A stretch of DNA of 32,000 nucleotides from Candidatus Saccharimonadota bacterium (GCA_016700135.1 CP065004.1:1050001-1082000), one strand, 5' to 3'; shown: positions 1,200 through 32,000, counted from the first letter of the stretch. The notes: generated by a model not told the origin, from the letters alone. Numbers and translations: made by a program.

Positions 1200-2216
1200 A
1201 TGGCAAGCAATTTTTTTTCCATAGATTTAAGTGAACAGTATACCCGCCTCGCACATCTTGAAACAAAAAAAAATAAGATTGAGCTACTGTCTCTCGGATA
1301 TGATGCAACCATGCCGAATTTTTATACAAATCCTGATGAAAAATCCGCTCAGGAAGAAGCGAAGCTGATAACTACTCTTCACCGTCAGCTAAATATTTCT
1401 TCAACCCGTGCACATGTGGTGGTGCCTGATACTCTGACGTATTCGCAACTATTATTGATGCCGGAACTTTCTGAAGAAGAGCTTGTCAAGGCCATTCGTC
1501 TCCAGGCTGATGAATTGGTTCCGCTCCCGATAAGTGAAGTATATCTTGATCTTGAAATTATCAGTAAGCTTCCAAACGGTAAGCTGCTTATTCTGTTTGT
1601 TGCTTCACAAAAGAAAATCGTCGATCATATTTACAAAACTATCGAATATGCCAATCTCGAACCGATTTCACTTGAGAATGAACTTACTGCAATAGGACGT
1701 TTTTTGACGGAGTTTTTTAAGTTTATAAAAGAACCGTCAATCCTTTTGAATTTCGGCTATTCCGGAAGTACCATATATGTGATCAATCCCGCATTTCCCT
1801 TTTTTCAGGTTACCCGGACATTACGGATCGGTTTTGATGTCATTTTCAGAGACTTAAAACTGAATACAAACCTGAGTGATCAAAAAGCTCTTGAAGCATT
1901 GAAGACAATTGGCCTAAACGCGAGCGGGAGCGTCAATGTATACTCGGTAATATACCCCGTACTGAACGAACTGTTTTCTGAGGTGGAAAAAACGATACTT
2001 CTGACTCAGGAAAAATATCATCTTCCCATCAGAAACATCTATCTTTTCAACTATGATAATCAGATTGCCAATATTCATGAAACGGTACAAAAGCGTCTTT
2101 CACTTCCGACGCAGTCCTTTCCTCTATCCAATATTCTCGTTCCCAATACAATTACCCAGACATTTTCTCAGGTTCTTTCGACATTCATACCAGTTATTGC
2201 GACTCATATTAGATGA
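1200..2216 (+). CDS. pilM: type IV pilus assembly protein PilM-like (actin-like ATPase fold)
   Basis: 338 aa. The N-terminal FFSIDLSEQYTRLAHLE resembles the first phosphate motif of the PilM/FtsA family. It is followed, with an ATGA overlap, by two bitopic proteins in the usual pilMNO order and sits downstream of the pilin genes. Confidence 0.65.
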   Translation: MASNFFSIDLSEQYTRLAHLETKKNKIELLSLGYDATMPNFYTNPDEKSAQEEAKLITTLHRQLNISSTRAHVVVPDTLTYSQLLLMPELSEEELVKAIRLQADELVPLPISEVYLDLEIISKLPNGKLLILFVASQKKIVDHIYKTIEYANLEPISLENELTAIGRFLTEFFKFIKEPSILLNFGYSGSTIYVINPAFPFFQVTRTLRIGFDVIFRDLKLNTNLSDQKALEALKTIGLNASGSVNVYSVIYPVLNELFSEVEKTILLTQEKYHLPIRNIYLFNYDNQIANIHETVQKRLSLPTQSFPLSNILVPNTITQTFSQVLSTFIPVIATHIR

Positions 2217-19861: not shown

Positions 19862-20380
19862 TTAGGAACAGCTTGGATGGTAGGTTGCAAGTTGTGTCAC
19901 GATGTCATCACCAGTGTTGAATAAACCGTCAGGACCGACGCTTCTTATAGAGTCCCGCCGGCAAGGGTTGGTGGGATATTCTCCGTCGTTTTCATCGACA
20001 ACATACGGACTTCCCCAGGGATCACGGGTATATTCGGTGATATCACCGTATCCTGCTGCGGAAACGGTATTCATGACATTTATCCAACGCTGCATACAGA
20101 TATGTGAAGTGGGGACATTGCGAAGATCGCCGGTATTGCATGCATTACAAAAACTGCAGTAATTTCCGGTGATTTGTCCGAACAACTGACCAGATTTTAC
20201 CCGCGCTGTTTCTACGCCTTTTTTAATATCTTCCAAGTCAGTCTCAGCGCTTGAAACACGGGTGTCATCTATGGTACTTCTGAATGACGCGGCACCGACT
20301 GTGGCAATTACGCCGATTATGCCCAACACAATAACAAGTTCAAGAAGTGTAAATGCTTTGTTCATGTCCGGGAATGTCAT
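19862..20380 (-). CDS. type IV pilin (candidate major pilin), Cys-rich globular domain
   Basis: MTFPDMNKA|FTLLELVIVLGIIGVIATVGAASF is a prepilin signal. The C-terminal domain has 7 Cys. The gene has its own promoter and terminator. Confidence 0.8.
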   Translation of the reverse strand: MTFPDMNKAFTLLELVIVLGIIGVIATVGAASFRSTIDDTRVSSAETDLEDIKKGVETARVKSGQLFGQITGNYCSFCNACNTGDLRNVPTSHICMQRWINVMNTVSAAGYGDITEYTRDPWGSPYVVDENDGEYPTNPCRRDSIRSVGPDGLFNTGDDIVTQLATYHPSCS

Positions 20381-20422: not shown

Positions 20423-21418
20423 TCATGCTACTCCAACTGCATCTTTTACTTCTCTGAGTGTTTGTTCGGCAATAAGGTTTGCCTTTTCTGCACCTTTTTT
20501 GCGGAGTTCCGAAATACGATCCATATCGTGCTGCAGTTCTTCCTTTCGCTTTTTCATATCGGCAAAATACTCAAGGAAATAATTAAGAAGAATTTTTTTG
20601 ATTTCGACATCACCGATTGTACCATTCTTATACCGCTCTTTCATATCTTCGAGTTTATTCCTCTCATACTCCATAAGCCCGAGATATGTAAATGCAACGT
20701 TTTTGTCCGGATCACCGGGATCAGTGGGATGAATACGGGCAGGATCGGTCGTGACTGACATAATTTGCTTTTTCACAATATCTTCAGAAGCAAAAATCGG
20801 AATATCATTTCCGAGTGATTTACTCATTTTGCGTTGGCCGTCAATACCGGGAACACGGGCAACATCCTTTTTGACAAATAGCTCAGGAACTTTCAGCACG
20901 TCTCCGTATCTGTTGTTGAATGTCCGCGCAATATCCCGGCAGATCTCAACATGCTGTGTCTGATCTTCACCCACAGGGATAACATCGGGATTAAATGCGA
21001 GAATATCAGCAGCCATAAGCACCGGATATGAAAACAGCCCGAAATTTATGGCATCCTGAGACACATCATTCTGCAGCTTATCTTTGTAGGCGTGCATCCT
21101 TTTGAGCTCCGCAACCGTCACTGCGTTATTCAGTATCGTCTGCAAATACGGAATGCTGTGAATATCGCTTTGGATATAAAATGTCGTCTTCTCAGGATCA
21201 AGACCGAAAGCCAGATATTCGATGAAAATATTCATCGTATTTTTATGTACTTCCTCAGGGTCAAAAACATTATTCAGTGCATGAAGATTCGCTATAAAGT
21301 AAAAACAATCACCTTTCTCCTGAAATTCAATGTGAGGTTTGACTGCTCCAAGATAATTTCCGAGATGAAGTCCTTTGGCTGAACTCGGCGTTATTCCAGA
21401 TAGTATTCGTTTTTGCAT
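20423..21418 (-). CDS. trpS: tryptophan--tRNA ligase
   Basis: Class I motifs GLHLGNYLGA (HIGH region) and KMSKS are present. Start at MQKRILSGITPS (21418). The ORF-track extension was rejected. Confidence 0.95.
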   Translation of the reverse strand: MQKRILSGITPSSAKGLHLGNYLGAVKPHIEFQEKGDCFYFIANLHALNNVFDPEEVHKNTMNIFIEYLAFGLDPEKTTFYIQSDIHSIPYLQTILNNAVTVAELKRMHAYKDKLQNDVSQDAINFGLFSYPVLMAADILAFNPDVIPVGEDQTQHVEICRDIARTFNNRYGDVLKVPELFVKKDVARVPGIDGQRKMSKSLGNDIPIFASEDIVKKQIMSVTTDPARIHPTDPGDPDKNVAFTYLGLMEYERNKLEDMKERYKNGTIGDVEIKKILLNYFLEYFADMKKRKEELQHDMDRISELRKKGAEKANLIAEQTLREVKDAVGVA

Positions 21419-21430
21419 ATTACTCTCACC

Positions 21431-21439
21431 ATTATAGCA
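21431..21439 (-). promoter_or_regulatory. extended -10 promoter TGCTATAAT for trpS
   Basis: The minus strand reads cgaTGCTATAATggtgagagtaatATG. Confidence 0.45.
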
Positions 21440-21478
21440 TCGTTTTTCCGTATAATGAAAACATACGAGGTCATTTTT

Positions 21479-23476
21479 ATGGCGAAGAAACCAATTAATT
21501 TTCATTCTTTACTACTGCCGGGAATACTGCTTCTTCTTACTCTTGCGGCCGGCGGAGTGATTTTCTTTGCGCTGAAACAAAGTGATACGTCAGAGAAGCA
21601 CGAAACAATCCAGGATATCCCCACAGAGGCTTCTCAATCGACAAATATTTTGGTTTATGATGTGACAGCCCCTGATACGGCTTTTACGGGAACGGCAAAG
21701 GAAAAAAATACTGAAGCGAGCGTACCTCTTAAGTTCAGAACAATTCGGTCTACTGATTATGACTATGACGACGAACGGGAACAGTACAAGACAACCGTTG
21801 TGCGACTGGCCACACGGACTGATATGACATTAGCGGTAACTATTCCGGGCAACCCGACCAGTGCCGTGCTGAGAAGTCCGACAGCTGATCTCCCGGTGAC
21901 TGTCTCAGGCGGGGTGGTGACGTTTGACTTACCGGCGATACCCGGAAATTATTACTTAAAAACGAATCTGCCGGATGAAGGCGAGTACATCCAAACAATG
22001 GTATTCTGGGTAGATAAACTTGATGACATCACCGTTACCAAGCCGACACAGGCAACTGAAGTATTGCCGGGGCAACCTCTTCAGGCCGTGATCGACGGTG
22101 CTCAACCGGGAACGATGATTTATCTTGCGCCTGGTATCCACTCGGCATCAGGAATTCGAATCGATTCAAAGAATGATATCTCACTTATTTTTCATCCGAA
22201 TGCCGTTTTAAATCAGACTTCAACCGACGAGAAATTTATCGATATAAACAGGTCCTCAAACGTGACAATAAAGGGGCCGGGAGAAATCCGGGCAGCCAAA
22301 GGTAACGGTCAAACAGTCTTATATGCACATGACTCCAACAACCTGATTCTTAACGACTTTTTCATCTATAAAATCCATCATCGTGACGGCTGGACTCTTC
22401 ATGTGTACCGTGATGACACCGTGCAGGTCAACCAGGTGAGAATTATTTCCGGAAATGACGGAACAGATCCTGACAGCTCGAAGAACGTGACTTACAACAA
22501 TATTTACATCGAAGCTCAGGATGATGCTGTAGCGATTAAGACACGGGGAGGAGAAGCAAATACCATTACGCTTAACAACGTTTTAGCAAAATCCGCCGCA
22601 TCGTCTTTGAAAATCGGAGAGGCAACGGTTGATTCTTTGACGACCAATATTACTTTCAAAAACAGTACGGTATTTGACAGTGATCGCGCTCTGGTGGTGA
22701 TGCCACGCGGCAACGGACGGATCGGGAATGTGCTCTATCAAAATATCCGGGTACTTTCGATGAGATCAAATAAGGAAGGGAGAACGATTCGTGTACTGAA
22801 ATCCGCAACGGATACAAGCGGCAGTATATTTGACGGGTCCTCCATTGTGTTTGATAATGTGTATGCAGAGTTTATCAAACCTGCTGAAATCAGACAGGCT
22901 GTGACGATCAAACATTCCAGGTTTGTTTCAAATGGTGGGATGAATATGTTTCCGGATACCTGTCCAACATTGATCAACCTGACTCTCGAAGGAGGGGCGA
23001 CGACAACCTGTACTATCCAAACGGAACCGACGTATACTCCTACTCCGACTGTGGGAGGTACCACACCTACTCCTACTTCTCCTGCTGCTACGGCAACAGT
23101 CCCACCGGGGACAACACCGACTCCTACTGCCGCAGCATCAACTCCGACACCGACAACGACAGCCCCGACCCCTACTCATACGGCTACGCCCACCTTGACT
23201 CCTACTCCTACATTGACGCCGACTCCCACCGCTACCCCGACTCCTACATCCACACCAACTCCGACCAGTACGCCGACTCCAACATCTACTCCGACGCCTA
23301 CATTTACCCCGACTCCCACGTTTACTCTTACTCCTACTCCGACTCAAACACCGGTGCCGACTGCAACATTTACACCTGTACCTGAGCTGAAAGTAAACGG
23401 TCAGCCGCCGGGATTCAATCCTCTCTACTTTGTAGGTATTCCTCTCATGATAATTATTGCGGCGCTGCTAATGTAG
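21479..23476 (+). CDS. secreted right-handed beta-helix protein, GH28 (polygalacturonase)-like, with Pro/Thr linker and C-terminal TM anchor
   Basis: N-terminal signal/TM MAKKPINFHSLLLPGILLLLTLAAGGVIFFAL. SGNDGTDPDSS and QDDAVAIKT resemble the GH28 NTDG and GDDC(I/V)AIK motifs. A ~120-aa (T/P)-rich linker follows, and the protein ends in the hydrophobic YFVGIPLMIIIAALLM. GAGG lies 8 nt upstream of ATG 21479. Confidence 0.7.
   Translation: MAKKPINFHSLLLPGILLLLTLAAGGVIFFALKQSDTSEKHETIQDIPTEASQSTNILVYDVTAPDTAFTGTAKEKNTEASVPLKFRTIRSTDYDYDDEREQYKTTVVRLATRTDMTLAVTIPGNPTSAVLRSPTADLPVTVSGGVVTFDLPAIPGNYYLKTNLPDEGEYIQTMVFWVDKLDDITVTKPTQATEVLPGQPLQAVIDGAQPGTMIYLAPGIHSASGIRIDSKNDISLIFHPNAVLNQTSTDEKFIDINRSSNVTIKGPGEIRAAKGNGQTVLYAHDSNNLILNDFFIYKIHHRDGWTLHVYRDDTVQVNQVRIISGNDGTDPDSSKNVTYNNIYIEAQDDAVAIKTRGGEANTITLNNVLAKSAASSLKIGEATVDSLTTNITFKNSTVFDSDRALVVMPRGNGRIGNVLYQNIRVLSMRSNKEGRTIRVLKSATDTSGSIFDGSSIVFDNVYAEFIKPAEIRQAVTIKHSRFVSNGGMNMFPDTCPTLINLTLEGGATTTCTIQTEPTYTPTPTVGGTTPTPTSPAATATVPPGTTPTPTAAASTPTPTTTAPTPTHTATPTLTPTPTLTPTPTATPTPTSTPTPTSTPTPTSTPTPTFTPTPTFTLTPTPTQTPVPTATFTPVPELKVNGQPPGFNPLYFVGIPLMIIIAALLM
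23021..23383 (+). repeat. low-complexity Pro/Thr-coding repeat (ACNCCN-type periodicity) inside the GH28-like gene
   Basis: The translation is TPTPTxTPTPT repeated. The antisense frames give an artefactual Arg/Ser/Cys ORF. Confidence 0.85.
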
Positions 23477-26550: not shown

Positions 26551-27265
26551 GGCTCTAGACTAGCAGAGTAGTGCTAAACTAGAGGTATGGTTTGTAACAA
26601 TAGGCCGATATCAAAATACAAGAGAAAAAAGATACTATGGTGTTTTGCACACGATCTGAGTGCTACACAGACCTCTGGTATTTTGGGTCTCAACCGCAAT
26701 ACAGTCAACAAATATTACAATAATATTCGTCAACTCATATATCATCACCAAGTGCACCAGATGCAACGATATGTTGGTGGTGAGATAGAAATTGATGAAT
26801 CATACTTTGGACCTCGAAGGATGAGAGGCAAGTCAAGTAAAAGAGGTCGTGGGACGTCATTTAAGCAGGTAGTATTTGGGATATATGAGCGTCAAGGACG
26901 TGTATTTACTCGTATCATTCCAAACTGTAAAAGAAGAACGCTACATGCTGTTATGAAGGGAAAGATTGACTTGAACAGTACTGTATATTCAGATTCGTGG
27001 AGCGGATACAACGGACTTGTTGATGTCGGGTATGACAAACATTTGAGAATCAATCACAAGAAAAATGAGTTCTCAAATACAAAAGGGGTCCATATCAATG
27101 GCATAGAGTCATTCTGGTCCTTTTGTAAAAGACGTCTCGTTAAGTTCAATGGTGTAAAGAAAAACTTTCCATTACACTTGAAAGAGTGTGAATGGAGATG
27201 GAGCAAATCCCCATCGATCCTTTACAATGAACTATTACAAATTGTTAATGTGCTAGTATAGAGCC
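26551..27265 (+). mobile_element. IS1595-family insertion sequence (IS1016-like subgroup), 715 bp
   Basis: Terminal inverted repeats GGCTCTAGACTAGCAGAGTA (26551-26570) and GGCTCTATACTAGCACATTA (complement of 27246-27265) match at 17/20. A single transposase ORF fills the element. No flanking direct repeat was found. Confidence 0.8.
26587..27261 (+). CDS. IS1595-family (IS1016-like) DDE transposase
   Basis: An N-terminal HTH-like segment (KKILWCFAHDLSATQTSGILGLNRNTVNKYYNNIRQ) is followed by IEIDESYFG, GRG..KQVVFGIYERQGRVF, YSDSW.GY and INGIESFWSF, as in IS1016-group transposases. Confidence 0.9.
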   Translation: MVCNNRPISKYKRKKILWCFAHDLSATQTSGILGLNRNTVNKYYNNIRQLIYHHQVHQMQRYVGGEIEIDESYFGPRRMRGKSSKRGRGTSFKQVVFGIYERQGRVFTRIIPNCKRRTLHAVMKGKIDLNSTVYSDSWSGYNGLVDVGYDKHLRINHKKNEFSNTKGVHINGIESFWSFCKRRLVKFNGVKKNFPLHLKECEWRWSKSPSILYNELLQIVNVLV

Positions 27266-27972
27266 AAAGTATTTGACCCGGTAATATTGGTATTAATCAG
27301 GTTGAACAAATCGACCTGTACTCTGCTGTCTCCCGTCATAATAATTCCGTCAGGTATAAGCAACACGTTTTTACCGGTGTCAGCAATTGCCTGAATCGTC
27401 GTCTCCACTTCTGCATCATTTTCGTTGATGGTTTCACTCTGGATTGCAGATTCAGTACTGACCAGTATGTTTTGACAGCTATCGGTTAAATTCAAGATGT
27501 CCTGAGTGTCGAAGTTATGAGATAAGATAAGCATGCAATTACCTGCACCTGTAATATTGGTATTTATAACATTGTCCACAGTGACTACGTTTTCAGCATT
27601 TCCCGTTCGGATAACCGGTGCTGTCAGTGTTACGGTAGGTACCGGTGTTACTTCTTGAACAATCACACTGCTCGGGCTGGCTTCTTCTGTAGATTGTTCC
27701 GATTTGATTAAGTCATCCGTAGTCATATCGATAGTGGGAATCACCGTGGGAGTAATTTCAGTAACCGGGATCGGTGGGGTAGTAATCAATTCTTCAGGTG
27801 TCGGTGAGATTTCTGTCTCAGGTGTGAGACTCGGTTCAGGCACGGGTGTTTCTGTAACTGCTTCTTCGACTGACGGTGTGGGAGAAATATCCGGAGTTTC
27901 CGTGACTGCAAAAACGGCAAGAGGCTGTGCTATCGTCAACGTGAAAATGAGAAGGAATGTTAGGTATTTCAT
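27253..27972 (-). CDS. secreted Pro/Thr/Glu-rich protein with NTNITG/TGDS repeat core; 3' end apparently replaced by the IS
   Basis: Signal peptide MKYLTFLLIFTLTIAQPLAVFA. The last codons and the TAG stop (27253-27265) lie inside the IS right inverted repeat. The second repeat (VDLFNLINTNITGSNT) breaks off where the first continues for ~90 aa. Confidence 0.6.
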   Translation of the reverse strand: MKYLTFLLIFTLTIAQPLAVFAVTETPDISPTPSVEEAVTETPVPEPSLTPETEISPTPEELITTPPIPVTEITPTVIPTIDMTTDDLIKSEQSTEEASPSSVIVQEVTPVPTVTLTAPVIRTGNAENVVTVDNVINTNITGAGNCMLILSHNFDTQDILNLTDSCQNILVSTESAIQSETINENDAEVETTIQAIADTGKNVLLIPDGIIMTGDSRVQVDLFNLINTNITGSNTLALY

Positions 27973-28121: not shown

Positions 28122-29054
28122 TTAACTCAACCAAAAGAAAAGCATATCCATAATATTTCCGATAAAGGAACTATTTGAATTGCCTTCCGCAGCAGAGCCA
28201 ACTTGTACACCTGCTCCACCAGTCATCATTCCGGTTCCGCCGATGTTGTCATCAGCGTCATTGTGACCTGAATTGGTATGTGTCATGATACTTTGCAATA
28301 CAGTCATCAAATTTGAACTCGATGAGCTCATAGATGTACTTGTATGTACATTTGTGTCTGTATCAAGATCATCTCCCGTGTTAACGATACTGGTCATATT
28401 CCCTCCTTCGTGAGAAGAAAGTGAACTCATTCCCCCACCAAGTCCGATTGCTGTTGTGTTGTCATTGACATCAACGTCAAAACCAACGGCAGCAGCAGCG
28501 TTACCTGTGGTAAGAGTCGGTCCAGAACCAATATTGTCATCAGCATCATTATGTCCGGTGTTAGCATGAATGTTTGCAGCTTGTTGGACGAATGCAGAAT
28601 TCATACTGTTTACTGAAACATTCGTGGTAGAATTTGCAGAAGTATCAATATCTGCATCATCTCCCGTGTTGACGATATCCGTCAAATTGGAATCACCGTC
28701 TCCGCTACTCACTGCAATAGCTGTCTGATTCTCATTTGCATCGACATCTAGACCGATTTGTGAAAGTGCGCTACCTGTCATAATTGACGTTCCGGCACCA
28801 TTCAAACTGATATTTCCGTCAGCAGAATTGTGACCAGTGTTAACATGTGCCTGTACTTGTTGAGTAATGGCAGCTACGTTGGTATTTGACACATTCACAT
28901 TTGTTGATGTTGATGAGGAAGTTGTCACCTGTGCATCATCACCGCTGTTGACGATATTTGTGGTATCGGAAGCGGCAAAAGCTGCCGGTGTTGCAACCAG
29001 CCCCATTATTGCGAGCATTGAGATTCCAGTTAGTAACATTTTCTTATTTAGCAT
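28122..29054 (-). CDS. secreted repeat protein, three ~95-aa NTGDD...NTGHN.AD.NI...TG.A modules
   Basis: Signal peptide ...LVATPAAFA|AS. ATG 29054 is preceded by GGGGGTGA at 9-nt spacing. It is a paralogue of the upstream 682-aa protein. Confidence 0.8.
   Translation of the reverse strand: MLNKKMLLTGISMLAIMGLVATPAAFAASDTTNIVNSGDDAQVTTSSSTSTNVNVSNTNVAAITQQVQAHVNTGHNSADGNISLNGAGTSIMTGSALSQIGLDVDANENQTAIAVSSGDGDSNLTDIVNTGDDADIDTSANSTTNVSVNSMNSAFVQQAANIHANTGHNDADDNIGSGPTLTTGNAAAAVGFDVDVNDNTTAIGLGGGMSSLSSHEGGNMTSIVNTGDDLDTDTNVHTSTSMSSSSSNLMTVLQSIMTHTNSGHNDADDNIGGTGMMTGGAGVQVGSAAEGNSNSSFIGNIMDMLFFWLS
28167..28961 (-). repeat. three tandem ~93-96-codon protein repeat modules (approximate bounds)
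   Basis: N(S/T)GDD occurs at aa 40, 133 and 229, and N(T/S)GHN(S/D)AD(G/D)NI at aa 76, 169 and 265 (ORF-track numbering). Confidence 0.6.
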
Positions 29055-29062
29055 ATTTCTAT

Positions 29063-31111
29063 TCACCCCCTTTCATCAATTTTGAACGTATAACTTCTGG
29101 AAGCGTATGTAGTTTTCCTTAATACTCCGCCGGAAAGCAAGACTGCGAGCGATGCAAGCAAAAAGGAAATCATATCTTCAGGACCCGTGGTAGGAAGTCT
29201 GCTTACGGATGCTCCAAGCACATCTCCCGTGGTGAAGGGAACGCCGCCTTTATATCCTGTTGTAGATGTCGAAGCCAGTGTTGTTCCTCCACCGCCGGTT
29301 TTGGTTCCTCCGTTATTTCCCCCGTTGCCTGTCGGTGTTGTGGTCGGTGTTGCGGTAGGATTCGGTCCGGATGTCGGTGTAGGTGTGACTGTAGGGTCCT
29401 GAGTCGGTGTGGGTGTGGGTGACGGATCGGCTTTTGCTATAACCTGACAGCCAACTTCAGTTTTGTTTGTATTTGCATTGGCCTCAGTTTGCACGGCCAG
29501 AACAGCGTCGCCTGTCCCGATAATACCTGTCTGACTGCCGATATTTCTGCTTGAGGTATTGGATCCAGTGTCTACCTGTCCTGTGATTTTTTGGACAAGG
29601 AATGCTTTATTGGTATTTGTCACGGAAATATCTGTTGTACTTGTTGTTGAAGTATCAGTCTGGAGATTGTCTCCGGTGTTTATGATTTCCGTATTTTGTC
29701 CTGAAGTTCCGCATGCTGTATATAGCGGATCACTACTGCTGCTGTCAGCGACCGGGTCGTTTGTTTCTTCCTTTAGGGTTGCGGAATTTTCATTCGCTTT
29801 TGCGTCCATTTTCACAATGACGGCAGCGTCTCCAGTAAATATGACCCCTGCGTCGCCGCCGAAGCTAATATTTCTGTTGGCCGTATTATATCCGGTATTG
29901 GCTACGGCATTGACCTGTTGATTGATTGCAGCCTTGTTTGTGTTTGTGACATCAGTATTAGTTGTGTCAGATGAAGATGTATCTGAAGTTGTATTGTCTC
30001 CGGTGTTGAGTATATCGGTACTGTTTTGGCTACTGTTTCCGTTGTTTGCAATCGTTGTGCTGTTGTCGTTTGCATCTGCTTTCATGTCTACATATACCAG
30101 TGCATCTCCGGTTTGAATTATTCCCGCACTTCCCGCAAGTCCGATATTGCGGTCAGCATGATTGTGCCCTGTATTTGCCATGCAGAGTGCTTGACCTGCT
30201 CCGCAGCTTTGTGAGATGAGTGCAGAGTTACTGTTCCTTATCGTGGTCGAGCGTTGCTTCATCAATCTGGAAGCAAAGTCATTATTGTCTCCGGTGTTTA
30301 CGAGGATGATAGATGCTCCGCTGCCCGGTCCGTTGCCATTACTGTCTCCCCCGATAAGGATGACACTTCCGTTTGCAGTCGCGAGAAAGTTGGTAGAGGT
30401 ATATGCCGAACCTGTCAGTATAACTCCGGCACTCCCGCCGATACTGATGTTTCCGTCTGCGGTATTGTGTCCGGTATTAGCCTCAGTCTGAGCCTGCTGA
30501 TTTATTACCGTTTCATTGTTATTGTTTACCATTGTTAACGTTGTATTTTGCGATGATGATGTCTTAGTCATACCGTTACCGGTATTAGTTGTATCGGAAG
30601 AAGTATTTGAAGTAGCCCCTGAGTATCCAATGGATGTTGTATTTTTATTCGTATCTGCTTTTGCGGTTGTCTGAACTCCGGCATTCCCTGTCACAATAAT
30701 TCCTGCATTACCGCCGAAACTGATATTTTTACCCGCTTCATTGTGTCCGGTATTGGCCGTTGCCGTCACCTGTTGATTGACGGCAGCTGTATTGTTGTTA
30801 TCTACTGCAGTTTCGGATGTACTCTCTGATTGATTTGTTTCCGAAACGTTATCTCCTGTATTAACCGTCGTATTTGACTGCTCTTGAGTAGGTTGTGTGG
30901 TTTCCTGTGTATTATTTTGTTCCTGATTTGAGGTTTGAAGTTCCTGTTGGGCCTGTGTTTGTATCTGTTCGGTCAGCGTATTCTTATCAGGAGGAGGGGT
31001 TTCTTCGGCCCAGGCGATGGGTAAAGGAAACAGAATCAAACTCAATGTAAGGTAACTAAATAAAGAGAATGAAACTGCTGTTCTGATAAATTTTGCTATA
31101 TGTATTTTCAT
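29063..31111 (-). CDS. LPXTG-anchored cell-surface protein with five ~91-109-aa NTGDN...NTGHN...TGDA modules
   Basis: Signal peptide ...LFPLPIAWA|EE, a Q/T/N/E-rich spacer, five modules, a P/T linker and then a C-terminal sorting signal: LPTTG (29186-29200), hydrophobic ISFLLASLAVLLSGGVL and basic RK. ATG 31111 is preferred over the TTG at 31123. Confidence 0.85.
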   Translation of the reverse strand: MKIHIAKFIRTAVSFSLFSYLTLSLILFPLPIAWAEETPPPDKNTLTEQIQTQAQQELQTSNQEQNNTQETTQPTQEQSNTTVNTGDNVSETNQSESTSETAVDNNNTAAVNQQVTATANTGHNEAGKNISFGGNAGIIVTGNAGVQTTAKADTNKNTTSIGYSGATSNTSSDTTNTGNGMTKTSSSQNTTLTMVNNNNETVINQQAQTEANTGHNTADGNISIGGSAGVILTGSAYTSTNFLATANGSVILIGGDSNGNGPGSGASIILVNTGDNNDFASRLMKQRSTTIRNSNSALISQSCGAGQALCMANTGHNHADRNIGLAGSAGIIQTGDALVYVDMKADANDNSTTIANNGNSSQNSTDILNTGDNTTSDTSSSDTTNTDVTNTNKAAINQQVNAVANTGYNTANRNISFGGDAGVIFTGDAAVIVKMDAKANENSATLKEETNDPVADSSSSDPLYTACGTSGQNTEIINTGDNLQTDTSTTSTTDISVTNTNKAFLVQKITGQVDTGSNTSSRNIGSQTGIIGTGDAVLAVQTEANANTNKTEVGCQVIAKADPSPTPTPTQDPTVTPTPTSGPNPTATPTTTPTGNGGNNGGTKTGGGGTTLASTSTTGYKGGVPFTTGDVLGASVSRLPTTGPEDMISFLLASLAVLLSGGVLRKTTYASRSYTFKIDERG
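29456..30865 (-). repeat. five tandem protein repeat modules (approximate bounds)
   Basis: NTG(D/N)(N/G) occurs at aa 88, 179, 276, 373 and 482. (N/D)TG(H/Y/S)N occurs at aa 124, 216, 317, 409 and 519 (ORF-track numbering). Confidence 0.6.
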
Positions 31112-31230
31112 AATAAATAACAAAGCTATTTACAAATTTTGTTATGGGGTAATCATAAGGTTGCTTCATAAAGATAGTGAAAGACTCTTATAAAAAAACA
31201 GTAAGGAAGTGAATGATAACTGATCCAAGG

Positions 31231-32000
31231 CTATGAAATGAGTTCAATAGTCTTACGAAAGACTTCATCAACAGTTACGGAACTGACATATGATTTCATA
31301 TGACCGCACGATTCAATTTCATTCAGCGGAATTTGAGAATCACGATCAAAAAGCGGTTGCCGACATACTTCACATTCCTGAATCCATGAGATAGCAGTGC
31401 GGTTTGTTGACCTTGTGACCGGAGACCAGTGGATCATGTTCGGGAACCAATAGATTCCGATCGTCGGTATCCCGATCGCACGGGCGAGATGCATTGGTCC
31501 GGTGTCGTTGGATATTACTGCTCGGGTTTGCTTGAGAACTCCGATAAGGGCTCTCAATGATAGTTTTCCGCACAGATTGACGGCCTGATGTTTCATCGCT
31601 TTTTGCACTTCAGTTATGATGTTTTCCTCAGATATAGTACCTGTAAGAACGATTTCATATCCTTCTTCATATAACCGATCTCCTAATTGAGCGTAGGAAT
31701 CAGCCGGCCAGATTCTTCGACTGTCACTTGCTCCGGTGTGAAGTACCACATATGGAGAGTTTATTCCTCTGATAAACTCCGTTGCTTCACGGTAATCTTC
31801 TTCAATTGTCGGAATCTTCGGGTCTATCGCTACAGGAGATGCTCCGGCCAGTGACACTACTTCAAGATATCGGTGAACTTCATGCTGATACAGCCGATAC
31901 GGAATTGTTTTATCAAGATCGGGGGCATCATCGGTTTTCATTCCGATTGTATAGTTCGCGCCCAGCCTCTTTACAAAAGGGTTAGAGTTTCTACCGCCGC
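31231..32000 (-). CDS. glycosyltransferase family 9 (ADP-heptose-dependent heptosyltransferase-like), 5'-partial at window edge
   Basis: The C-terminal GT-B domain has VVLHTGASDSRRIWP, NLCGKLSLRALIGVL and VISNDTGPMHLARAIGIPTIGIY. The frame stays open from 31941 to the window end (…GGRNSNPFVKRLGANYTIG), so the real start lies beyond 32000. Confidence 0.85.
   Translation of the reverse strand, partial: GGRNSNPFVKRLGANYTIGMKTDDAPDLDKTIPYRLYQHEVHRYLEVVSLAGASPVAIDPKIPTIEEDYREATEFIRGINSPYVVLHTGASDSRRIWPADSYAQLGDRLYEEGYEIVLTGTISEENIITEVQKAMKHQAVNLCGKLSLRALIGVLKQTRAVISNDTGPMHLARAIGIPTIGIYWFPNMIHWSPVTRSTNRTAISWIQECEVCRQPLFDRDSQIPLNEIESCGHMKSYVSSVTVDEVFRKTIELIS

Follow-up and report, generated by a model that had tools for sequence, protein, structure and literature searches.

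What might two adjacent genes, whose products are built from tandem copies of one unrecognised repeat, assemble at the surface of a bacterium? The question is raised by positions 28122-31111 of a 32,000-nucleotide stretch from a Candidatus Saccharimonadota bacterium (GCA_016700135.1, CP065004.1:1050001-1082000), here called the window, where an earlier note, made from the sequence alone, had described a larger protein with a wall-anchoring signal (A) and a smaller secreted paralogue (B). Envelope building and host attachment in the candidate phyla radiation (CPR), or Patescibacteria, are poorly understood, and most of the surface proteins of these organisms are unannotated. Here, we define the module, describe three recurrent architectures that would place it at different envelope depths and report the conserved operon that encodes them, which together make a candidate CPR surface fibre, coat or adhesin. 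The reading that we prefer, to which we give a little less than an even chance, is that the cassette encodes a patescibacterial envelope assembly, in which the anchored paralogue would tether or template the secreted one into a fibre or coat.

A repeat module outside the curated domain families

Gene A (IPM65_05665; 29063-31111, minus strand) encodes 682 amino acids (aa) from the ATG at 31111 (the open reading frame, ORF, spans 29063-31123 if read from a TTG), a form identical to NCBI QQS43608.1, whose record gives Candidatus Roizmanbacteria as the organism, and 53% identical to the orthologue of Roizmanbacteria UBA1450. Its product runs from a signal peptide through an N-terminal motif and an S/T/Q-rich spacer to five modules, a P/T linker and an LPTTG sorting signal. 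Gene B (IPM65_05660, P0001; 28122-29054, minus strand) encodes 310 aa from the ATG at 29054 (with the ORF reaching 29066 if read from a GTG), a form 100% identical to the NCBI annotation IPM65_05660, which is adjacent to the protein of gene A; it consists of a signal peptide (aa 1-27), three modules and a short hydrophobic C-terminal tail. ORFs on the plus strand within A and B (e.g. 29187-30538) were dismissed as antisense artefacts of repeat-rich coding sequence.

The modules of A occupy aa 82-173, 174-269, 270-366, 367-475 and 476-565 (29417-30868, minus strand), and those of B aa 34-126, 127-222 and 223-298 (within 28122-29054, minus strand). All eight align across some 92 columns with the motifs picked out in the earlier note present, and ORF calling, this alignment and a module hidden Markov model (HMM) bear out both the location of the two minus-strand ORFs and the count of five and three modules that the note had given. 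Against the HMM derived from the window, each window module has an independent E-value of 1e-29 to 1e-35 (1e-30 to 1e-35 for the five of A), and modules of orthologues from other genomes score 1e-11 to 1e-29, which takes the repeat far beyond an effect of composition. It might still be asked whether this is a low-complexity, N/T/S/G-rich artefact with no defined domain, given that Thr, Asn, Gly and Ser make up 43-48% of each of A and B. We regard that explanation as already refuted, and as having next to no probability left, by the HMM E-values to 1e-35, by 528 sequence clusters at E<=1e-30, by invariant residues that are position-specific and conserved over 78-101 aligned sequences, by a coherent co-evolution ladder (see below) and by a reversed-profile control that fails.

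Database searches returned nothing that would name the module. Searches of Pfam-A 2025 and NCBIfam 20.0 gave no module match for A, B or the third protein C (see below) at E<=1, a sub-threshold anchor match of A aside, and 10 further family members likewise had no domain match at E<=0.01, if chance hits under the threshold are set aside. Among PDB sequences there was no match for A and none for a 78-module profile at E<=10, and no match was found in phage records. The statement that the module lies outside any curated family therefore stands for Pfam, NCBIfam and PDB sequences, and the HMM searches of Pfam and NCBIfam produced no confident match to any repeat family that has been characterised. 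By the tests run, the module is a genuine domain family that has no curated entry and no sequence relationship to known repeat families, and it offers a basis for a new domain-family entry; what is uncurated is the module and its three-gene cassette, sortase-linked surface repeat proteins in general being already known. Tandem repeats corresponding to the modules were not found at the DNA level with TRF, so that the duplications must be ancient. An internal duplication of half-modules (NTGD... versus NTGHN...) was considered and dropped, as alignment of the two halves with hhalign gave E 0.042 and a probability of 1.2%.

Size and distribution of the family

A word-indexed search with B recovered 36 relatives, mostly of four modules, all with signal peptides and all without Pfam domains, and the same type of search with the 92-aa module profile returned 10 short fragments only. 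When the module profile was run exhaustively as an HMM on the representatives of 1.84 billion clusters (50% identity), 3,483 clusters passed E<=1e-3, of which 2,040 also passed E<=1e-10 and 528 passed E<=1e-30. Source names, where recovered, were all 'hypothetical protein' from Roizmanbacteria, the 'Parcubacteria group' or the 'Patescibacteria group', and no Firmicutes member was seen among the named matches. The cluster count and these names together mark the family as large and apparently Patescibacteria-wide, and the proposal of a lineage-specific system does not hold in a narrow sense: at least 3,483 clusters are spread, judging by the named hits, apparently across Patescibacteria.

Retrieval of related loci with a narrower module alignment yielded 8 + 8 loci. 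Four contigs of metagenome-assembled genomes (L008, L009, L011 and L013) are titled 'uncultured Gammaproteobacteria' yet carry the cassette, partly in the same synteny as in Roizmanbacteria and Patescibacteria. Gene B is 91-98% identical in L008 and L009 (98% in L008), and the titles are probably placeholder mislabels. A D/N-rich sister subfamily was also recovered (the distant relatives P0026, P0028, P0035 and P0036, and L016), with the pattern ISGNGxxSxN...DQDNxAxVxNDVDVDAxTGxNDAxxNTGGxV.IxTGDA and paired Cys (CC, CxC) in alternate linkers; its composition suggests Ca2+ binding.

A cassette of three paralogous genes

Around every B-type gene with enough flanking DNA, three genes lie on one strand in the order A, B, C, while the surrounding genes vary. 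This arrangement is found at about 14 distinct loci (L001, L003, L005, L006, L007, L008, L009, L014, L015, L017, L018, L019, L022 and L023), with partial cases where a contig ends. A-type proteins have 4-6 modules, usually with an LPxTG motif and a transmembrane segment; B-type proteins have 3-4 modules. The spacing between A and B is tight, with an 8-nt gap or an overlap. In the window, an SD-like (Shine-Dalgarno) AAAGGGGGTGA overlaps the stop codon of A (junction 29055-29075, minus strand) and stands immediately 5' of the 8-nt spacer, ATAGAAAT, that separates the TGA of A from the ATG of B. Both this gap with its SD and the close linkage of the two genes had been claimed beforehand; the first is right if B starts at its ATG, and the second is strengthened by the conservation of the pairing across genomes. 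What has to be given up is a system of two genes, the third member being present in the window as a remnant truncated by an insertion sequence (IS). A scan for promoters and terminators found promoter-like sites to be fewer than after shuffling of the sequence, and between A and B it found no terminator on the minus strand, a result compatible with co-transcription of the pair that we do not count as evidence.

The third protein belongs to the same family in a degenerate form. C-type proteins are 536-757 aa long, mutually orthologous (BLAST E 1e-31 to 0) and made of four degenerate units, after each of which comes the segment N(T/V)N(I/L)xGxNW...INxFD...GDIIxP; in most, the chain closes with a transmembrane segment and a basic tail. 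When profiles were compared with hhalign, the C unit proved homologous to the A/B module over positions 18-79 of the latter, with a probability of 96.2% and E 2.5e-9 (a reversed control gave E 0.53), from which it follows that the three products are paralogues. By sequence, they would be placed at three envelope depths: wall (A), free (B) and membrane (C). The C orthologues of L001, L003 and L005 also carry PF01345 (CLIPPER, formerly DUF11), an Ig-like domain discussed in a survey of isopeptide bonds (PMC12617251), which lies downstream of the point at which the window's copy is truncated.

At two loci other surface-assembly genes lie in the neighbourhood. A sortase (PF04203) lies close upstream of the L003 cassette, with a 2,301-aa SpaA-type gene in between, and an S26 signal peptidase lies downstream (L003 368-7850 and 12791-13423); directly upstream of the L017 cassette are two TasA-like Peptidase_M73 genes and a signal peptidase (L017 566-2487).

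Predicted architecture of the module

AlphaFold2 modelled B with a predicted local distance difference test (pLDDT) score of 64 when given 34 homologues and of 77 when given 101, in the latter case with a predicted template modelling score (pTM) of 0.53. The model is all-beta, and one pattern of strands recurs at matching positions in each of the three modules, first a strand of 6 residues, then a strand region of 31, short strands near NTGHN...NI.GG and finally a strand region of 20; a C-terminal helix follows the modules. Co-evolution gives a more specific picture. In a mean-field direct coupling analysis (DCA) of 627 modules from 188 proteins (effective number of sequences, Neff, 614), the 30 strongest couplings included 14 that fall on the antidiagonal i+j = 97-101, where the background is 5.2% (hypergeometric p = 5e-11). 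They form a ladder running from (20,77) to (45,55), which recurs in two disjoint subfamilies with 10/30 and 11/30 of the top couplings. The ladder implies that one arm, N.N.A.V.Q.V.A.A, is paired antiparallel over about 25 residues with a second, TG.A.V.V....AN.N.T (the pairing covering its A.V.V....AN.N.T part), with the tip (NTGxN...NI.GG) at NI.GG. Taken together, co-evolution and AlphaFold2 indicate for each module a long beta unit of two arms, some 25 residues apiece, a predicted fold whose very long paired arms have no solved counterpart. Other coupling bands, between the N-terminal segment and the tip or arm 2, were dropped as contacts, as they mostly involve near-invariant motif columns and may reflect joint motif decay. 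Natural Cys pairs occur at module positions (-9, 80), (-8, 17) and (50, 55); assuming that these form disulfides, they suggest that NTGD (IVNTGD), which lies at the end opposite the tip, is a reverse turn and that the ends of the module are adjacent.

At the end of arm 2, module positions 73-75 form an N-x-T (ANENQT, NDNTT and NKNTT in A and B) that is formally an N-glycosylation sequon. A structural cause for its conservation is at least as likely as glycosylation, with T75 co-varying with N24.

The couplings involve conserved alternate positions only, i.e. one face of the two arms; of the two faces of the module, one is conserved and the other variable and polar. Such a two-faced unit would suit an S-layer- or sheath-like two-dimensional coat, in which B would supply the abundant subunit of the lattice, tethered to the wall by A and to the membrane by C. 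The family is very widespread in Patescibacteria, in which S-layers are reported to be prevalent (bioRxiv 10.1101/2024.05.28.596244), and the B-type is its commonest architecture. We consider a coat of this kind improbable all the same, as the module number varies and Pfam and NCBIfam show no likeness to a known S-layer protein or to an anchoring domain such as SLH.

Structural comparison with Foldseek returned only weak likenesses, to functional amyloids and solenoids. For both models of B the top PDB match, and the sole one below 1e-3, was the functional amyloid FapC (9u4u_A; E 7.1e-4 and 8.8e-4, template modelling score (TM) 0.10-0.21, root-mean-square deviation >30 A), and weaker matches were to SufD, tapirins, CsgA (E 0.16-4, TM ~0.05), antifreeze and ice-binding proteins, pectate lyases and tailspikes, all of them parallel beta-solenoids. 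The all-beta, solenoid- or fibre-like architecture suggested in the earlier note is compatible with both AlphaFold2 and Foldseek. These matches, with others to RTX blocks, also bear on the idea that the module folds as a beta-helix and works as an enzyme or ligand binder, for instance as a lyase or hydrolase of polysaccharides or as a protein that binds Ca2+ or ice, an idea for which the very Asp/Asn-rich sister subfamily might be cited as well. The matches in question (pectate lyases, tailspikes, beta-helices of ice-binding and antifreeze proteins, RTX blocks) all have E>0.1 and TM<=0.1, Pfam models of enzymes and of RTX give no match, and conservation falls on small or polar residues of a structural kind (N, G, T, A, V, Q) with no catalytic-type pattern, so a role of this sort is very improbable.

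The one-faced coupling, the conserved Asn and Gln in mid-arm and the Foldseek matches lean instead towards a beta-arch or cross-beta stack. In its strongest form this would make the cassette a functional-amyloid-like system found throughout Patescibacteria and not recognised before, each module forming a giant rung of a flat two-sheet cross-beta solenoid with Asn/Gln/Thr ladders, and A and C serving as templates onto which B polymerises. We think this unlikely, and the consequences would be considerable: functional amyloids would gain a new, sortase-linked type, and the assembly would be the main surface fibre or sheath of ultra-small bacteria, serving host attachment or envelope integrity.

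Signals for export and anchoring, and possible binding elements

Read by eye from its n-, h- and AxA regions, the signal peptide of A comprises aa 1-35 (...PIAWA|EE; 31007-31111, minus strand); that of B, likewise from reading the sequence, would be cleaved at AFA|AS. At its other end A has a P/T-rich linker (aa 562-595; 29327-29428, minus strand) that would span the wall, followed by a G/N/T-rich spacer and the C-terminal sorting signal (29066-29221, minus strand): VLGA at aa 631-634, LPTTG at aa 639-643, an 18-residue hydrophobic segment at aa 647-664, RK and a 16-aa tail, the tail being given here as RKTTYASRSYTFKIDERG. The candidate sortase-substrate peptide is ...VLGASVSRLPTTGPED.... The prediction that A has a complete sortase signal is thus upheld at the level of sequence, by the LPTTG, the hydrophobic stretch and the RK tail, and the same layout recurs in 19 relatives: among 173 family members, 19 have LPxTG and a transmembrane segment, the majority with VLGA 3-8 residues upstream. 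From this we infer that A is attached covalently to peptidoglycan by a sortase. The element (S/D)VLGA (window 29210-29221 in A) is conserved upstream of LPxTG in most A-types and may be an extended sortase-recognition element of these CPR substrates.

B was said to be without an anchor, and indeed a sorting signal is absent. It ends in GNIMDMLFFWLS (28125-28160, minus strand), for which AlphaFold2 predicts a helix at aa 301-309. Tails of this sort, hydrophobic, 10-14 residues long and without a basic cluster, end 68/173 family members. Their consensus, G-x-(L/M)-(G/D)-x-(L/W)-(L/F)-x-(L/M)-(L/F)..., is unlike known C-terminal sorting signals, its length is insufficient for a transmembrane helix, and it might serve as a cap or as a helix for docking or for lipid binding.

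Two further elements of A might contact a partner. Directly after the signal peptide stands PDKNTLTEQIQTQAQQE (aa 41-57; 30941-30991, minus strand), whose consensus P-(N/D)-(K/R)-x-x-L-x-x-x-I-x-Q-x-A is found in about 18/22 LPXTG-type relatives and is absent from B-type proteins; it may form an interaction helix at the distal tip. Module 3 of A contains a Cys-bounded insert in arm 1 (C303 GAGQAL C310; 30182-30205, minus strand; module positions 34 and 41). Such a module-3 Cys pair, at position 34 and at 41-52, brackets an insert of variable length (6 to ~20 residues) in 17/20 A-type proteins and also occurs in module 2 of many 4-module B-types; the window's three-module B is without it and has zero Cys. 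We regard the insert as a candidate disulfide-bounded variable or specificity loop.

With these elements in hand, the main rival to the assembly that we prefer, less likely than it but conceivable, is that each of the three proteins works independently as a fibrillar adhesin or stalk, without co-assembly; they would be rigid rods of repeats that bear a distal binding element (the N-terminal motif of A or its module-3 Cys loop) and differ only in their attachment to the envelope. A has the classical layout of a fibrillar adhesin, from signal peptide through repeats and P/T linker to LPxTG, with a conserved distal motif and a Cys-bounded variable insert in one module, and C orthologues have an Ig-like CLIPPER/DUF11 stalk domain; long antiparallel paired arms would suit an elongated sheet, and a pTM of 0.53 with good local pLDDT would suit beads on a string. 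What stalks acting alone leave unaccounted for is the strict A-B-C order and the tight coupling of A to B by an 8-nt gap or overlap, which suggest a functional unit, together with a B that has neither an anchor nor a recognisable binding domain; and a solitary single-layer sheet leaves the conserved face of the module unexplained.

Truncation of gene C by an insertion sequence

Downstream of B the earlier note had seen a 239-aa gene that shares the core of the module. The shared core is confirmed by the hhalign comparison above, and the gene is not complete: only codons 1-236 are native, the rest being read-through into an IS. The remnant (27265-27972, minus strand) represents the first 236 codons of a protein of ~665 aa. 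It keeps the signal peptide, a P/T/E-rich spacer and 2/4 degenerate modules, lacks the CLIPPER/DUF11 domain and the C-terminal transmembrane anchor with some 430 codons, and has no match to PF01345 or any other Pfam family. It is 77.5% identical to residues 3-238 of the 667-aa orthologue of L008, the match ending at codon 236, and 37% identical to L001_C (678 aa).

The element responsible is an IS of the IS1595 family (26551-27264, plus strand; 714 bp), to which it belongs by both its transposase (ORF 26587-27261; PF12762 DDE_Tnp_IS1595, E 1.7e-27) and its terminal inverted repeats, GGCTCTAGACTAGCA and GGCTCTATACTAGCA, of 15 bp at 26551-26565 and 27250-27264, in which 14/15 bases match. The C ORF meets the element at 27264/27265, and beyond the IS lies a MIP gene; lost with the insertion are the ~430 distal codons of C and, beside it, the 161-aa gene that L001 has. 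The relatives L001, L008 and L009 keep C intact, and its integrity in the close relatives L008 and L009 makes the event recent and strain-specific.

Other genes at the locus may be noted for completeness. Glycosyltransferase genes flank the cassette, of type GT9 in the window (31231-31941), L001 and L005 and of type GT4 in L001 and L005. Elsewhere in the window are further genes related to the envelope, for a 687-aa protein with a weak match to GH28, a parallel beta-helix family (21413-23476, plus strand), a protein with a prepilin-type N-methylation motif (19862-20380, minus strand) and PilM (1200-2216, plus strand).

From modules to a proposed surface assembly

How might these pieces work together? 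In the tethered assembly that we prefer, modules would stack or align into an extended beta-sheet scaffold with exposed edges. We propose that, through such edges, A at the wall, and probably membrane-bound C, tether or template free B into a surface fibre or coat; B, which has the same assembly-competent module and no anchor, would be retained by edge or face association with A, C or both. The product would serve attachment or envelope integrity in small, probably host-dependent cells.

Several observations weigh against this proposal. On the side of anchoring, no sortase gene lies within the 32 kb window, the anchor HMMs score A just below their cut-offs (PF00746 18.9 bits, gathering threshold 20; TIGR01167 15.4 bits, cut-off 15.9), where the long 18-aa tail probably costs it score, and L005_A and L018_A have no clear LPxTG. 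On the side of structure, the pTM of the B model is only 0.53, Foldseek TM values of 0.05-0.2 against PDB amount to no true fold match and make any likeness to amyloids and solenoids tentative, and the lean towards a beta-arch or cross-beta stack leaves a hydrogen-bonded hairpin sheet as the alternative. Inter-module DCA for in-register stacking had to be dropped: i-i couplings dominate, as expected from the likeness of the repeats, and being confounded by that similarity they are uninformative. The C-terminal helix predicted for B could be a cap that blocks end-to-end polymerisation. As for the genes, P0035 (L016) has no A-type gene upstream, on a contig that stops ~240 bp downstream of the gene, and the window strain survives the loss of most of C, which is therefore dispensable, at least in the short term.

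Comparison with known systems

The TasA/TapA/SipW system (Peptidase_M73) combines an anchor or accessory protein with a fibre subunit in one operon of a monoderm, as the present cassette would; M73 genes and a signal peptidase stand upstream of the L017 cassette, and an S26 peptidase after that of L003. TasA itself has a jellyroll fold, and its assembly is by donor-strand exchange. It has no homology to the proteins described here, and the window's cassette contains no signal peptidase.

Sortase-anchored fibrillar adhesins such as SasG/Aap G5-E form single-layer beta-sheet rods. Like A, they join a signal peptide, tandem elongated beta modules, a wall linker and LPXTG, and their modules are long and thin with a low hydrophobic core. 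The present family differs in having no HMM match to G5, Ig-like or other stalk domains, and in its obligatory unanchored partner and third paralogue.

The amyloids of curli (CsgA/CsgB, PF07012) and Fap (FapC/FapB) likewise consist of imperfect repeats in tandem, in which every other position tends to hold a conserved Asn, Gln or Gly, and have a strand-turn-strand unit with facing arms. Their nucleator and major subunit are encoded side by side, and the logic of CsgB and CsgA in curli is comparable to the tethering or templating proposed here for A and B. Their repeats are far shorter, at ~22 aa in curli and ~35-40 aa in Fap compared with ~92 aa here. There is no HMM or PDB-sequence match, the Curlin repeat (PF07012; ~22 aa, S-X5-Q-X-G-X-G-N-X-A-X3-Q) giving none in Pfam at E<=1, and the TM values are 0.05-0.2. 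The setting differs too, with a monoderm-type envelope and predicted sortase anchoring here and no CsgG/FapF outer-membrane channel.

The closest documented logic is that of the Streptomyces chaplins (PF03777), in which long chaplins, sortase-anchored to peptidoglycan, tether short ones that co-assemble with them into a surface layer (PMC5618241). Chaplins (long ChpA-C, short ChpD-H) and the A/B pair would share the principle of anchored-plus-secreted paralogues: one domain for assembly, putative in A and B, carried by a longer protein with a sortase signal and a shorter secreted one. They have no sequence relationship, with no Pfam match to PF03777, and the chaplin domain is hydrophobic and ~40-55 aa long, whereas our module is polar (N/T/S/G/D-rich) and ~92 aa long. 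To the chaplin scheme of two paralogues the patescibacterial cassette adds a third, membrane-anchored one.

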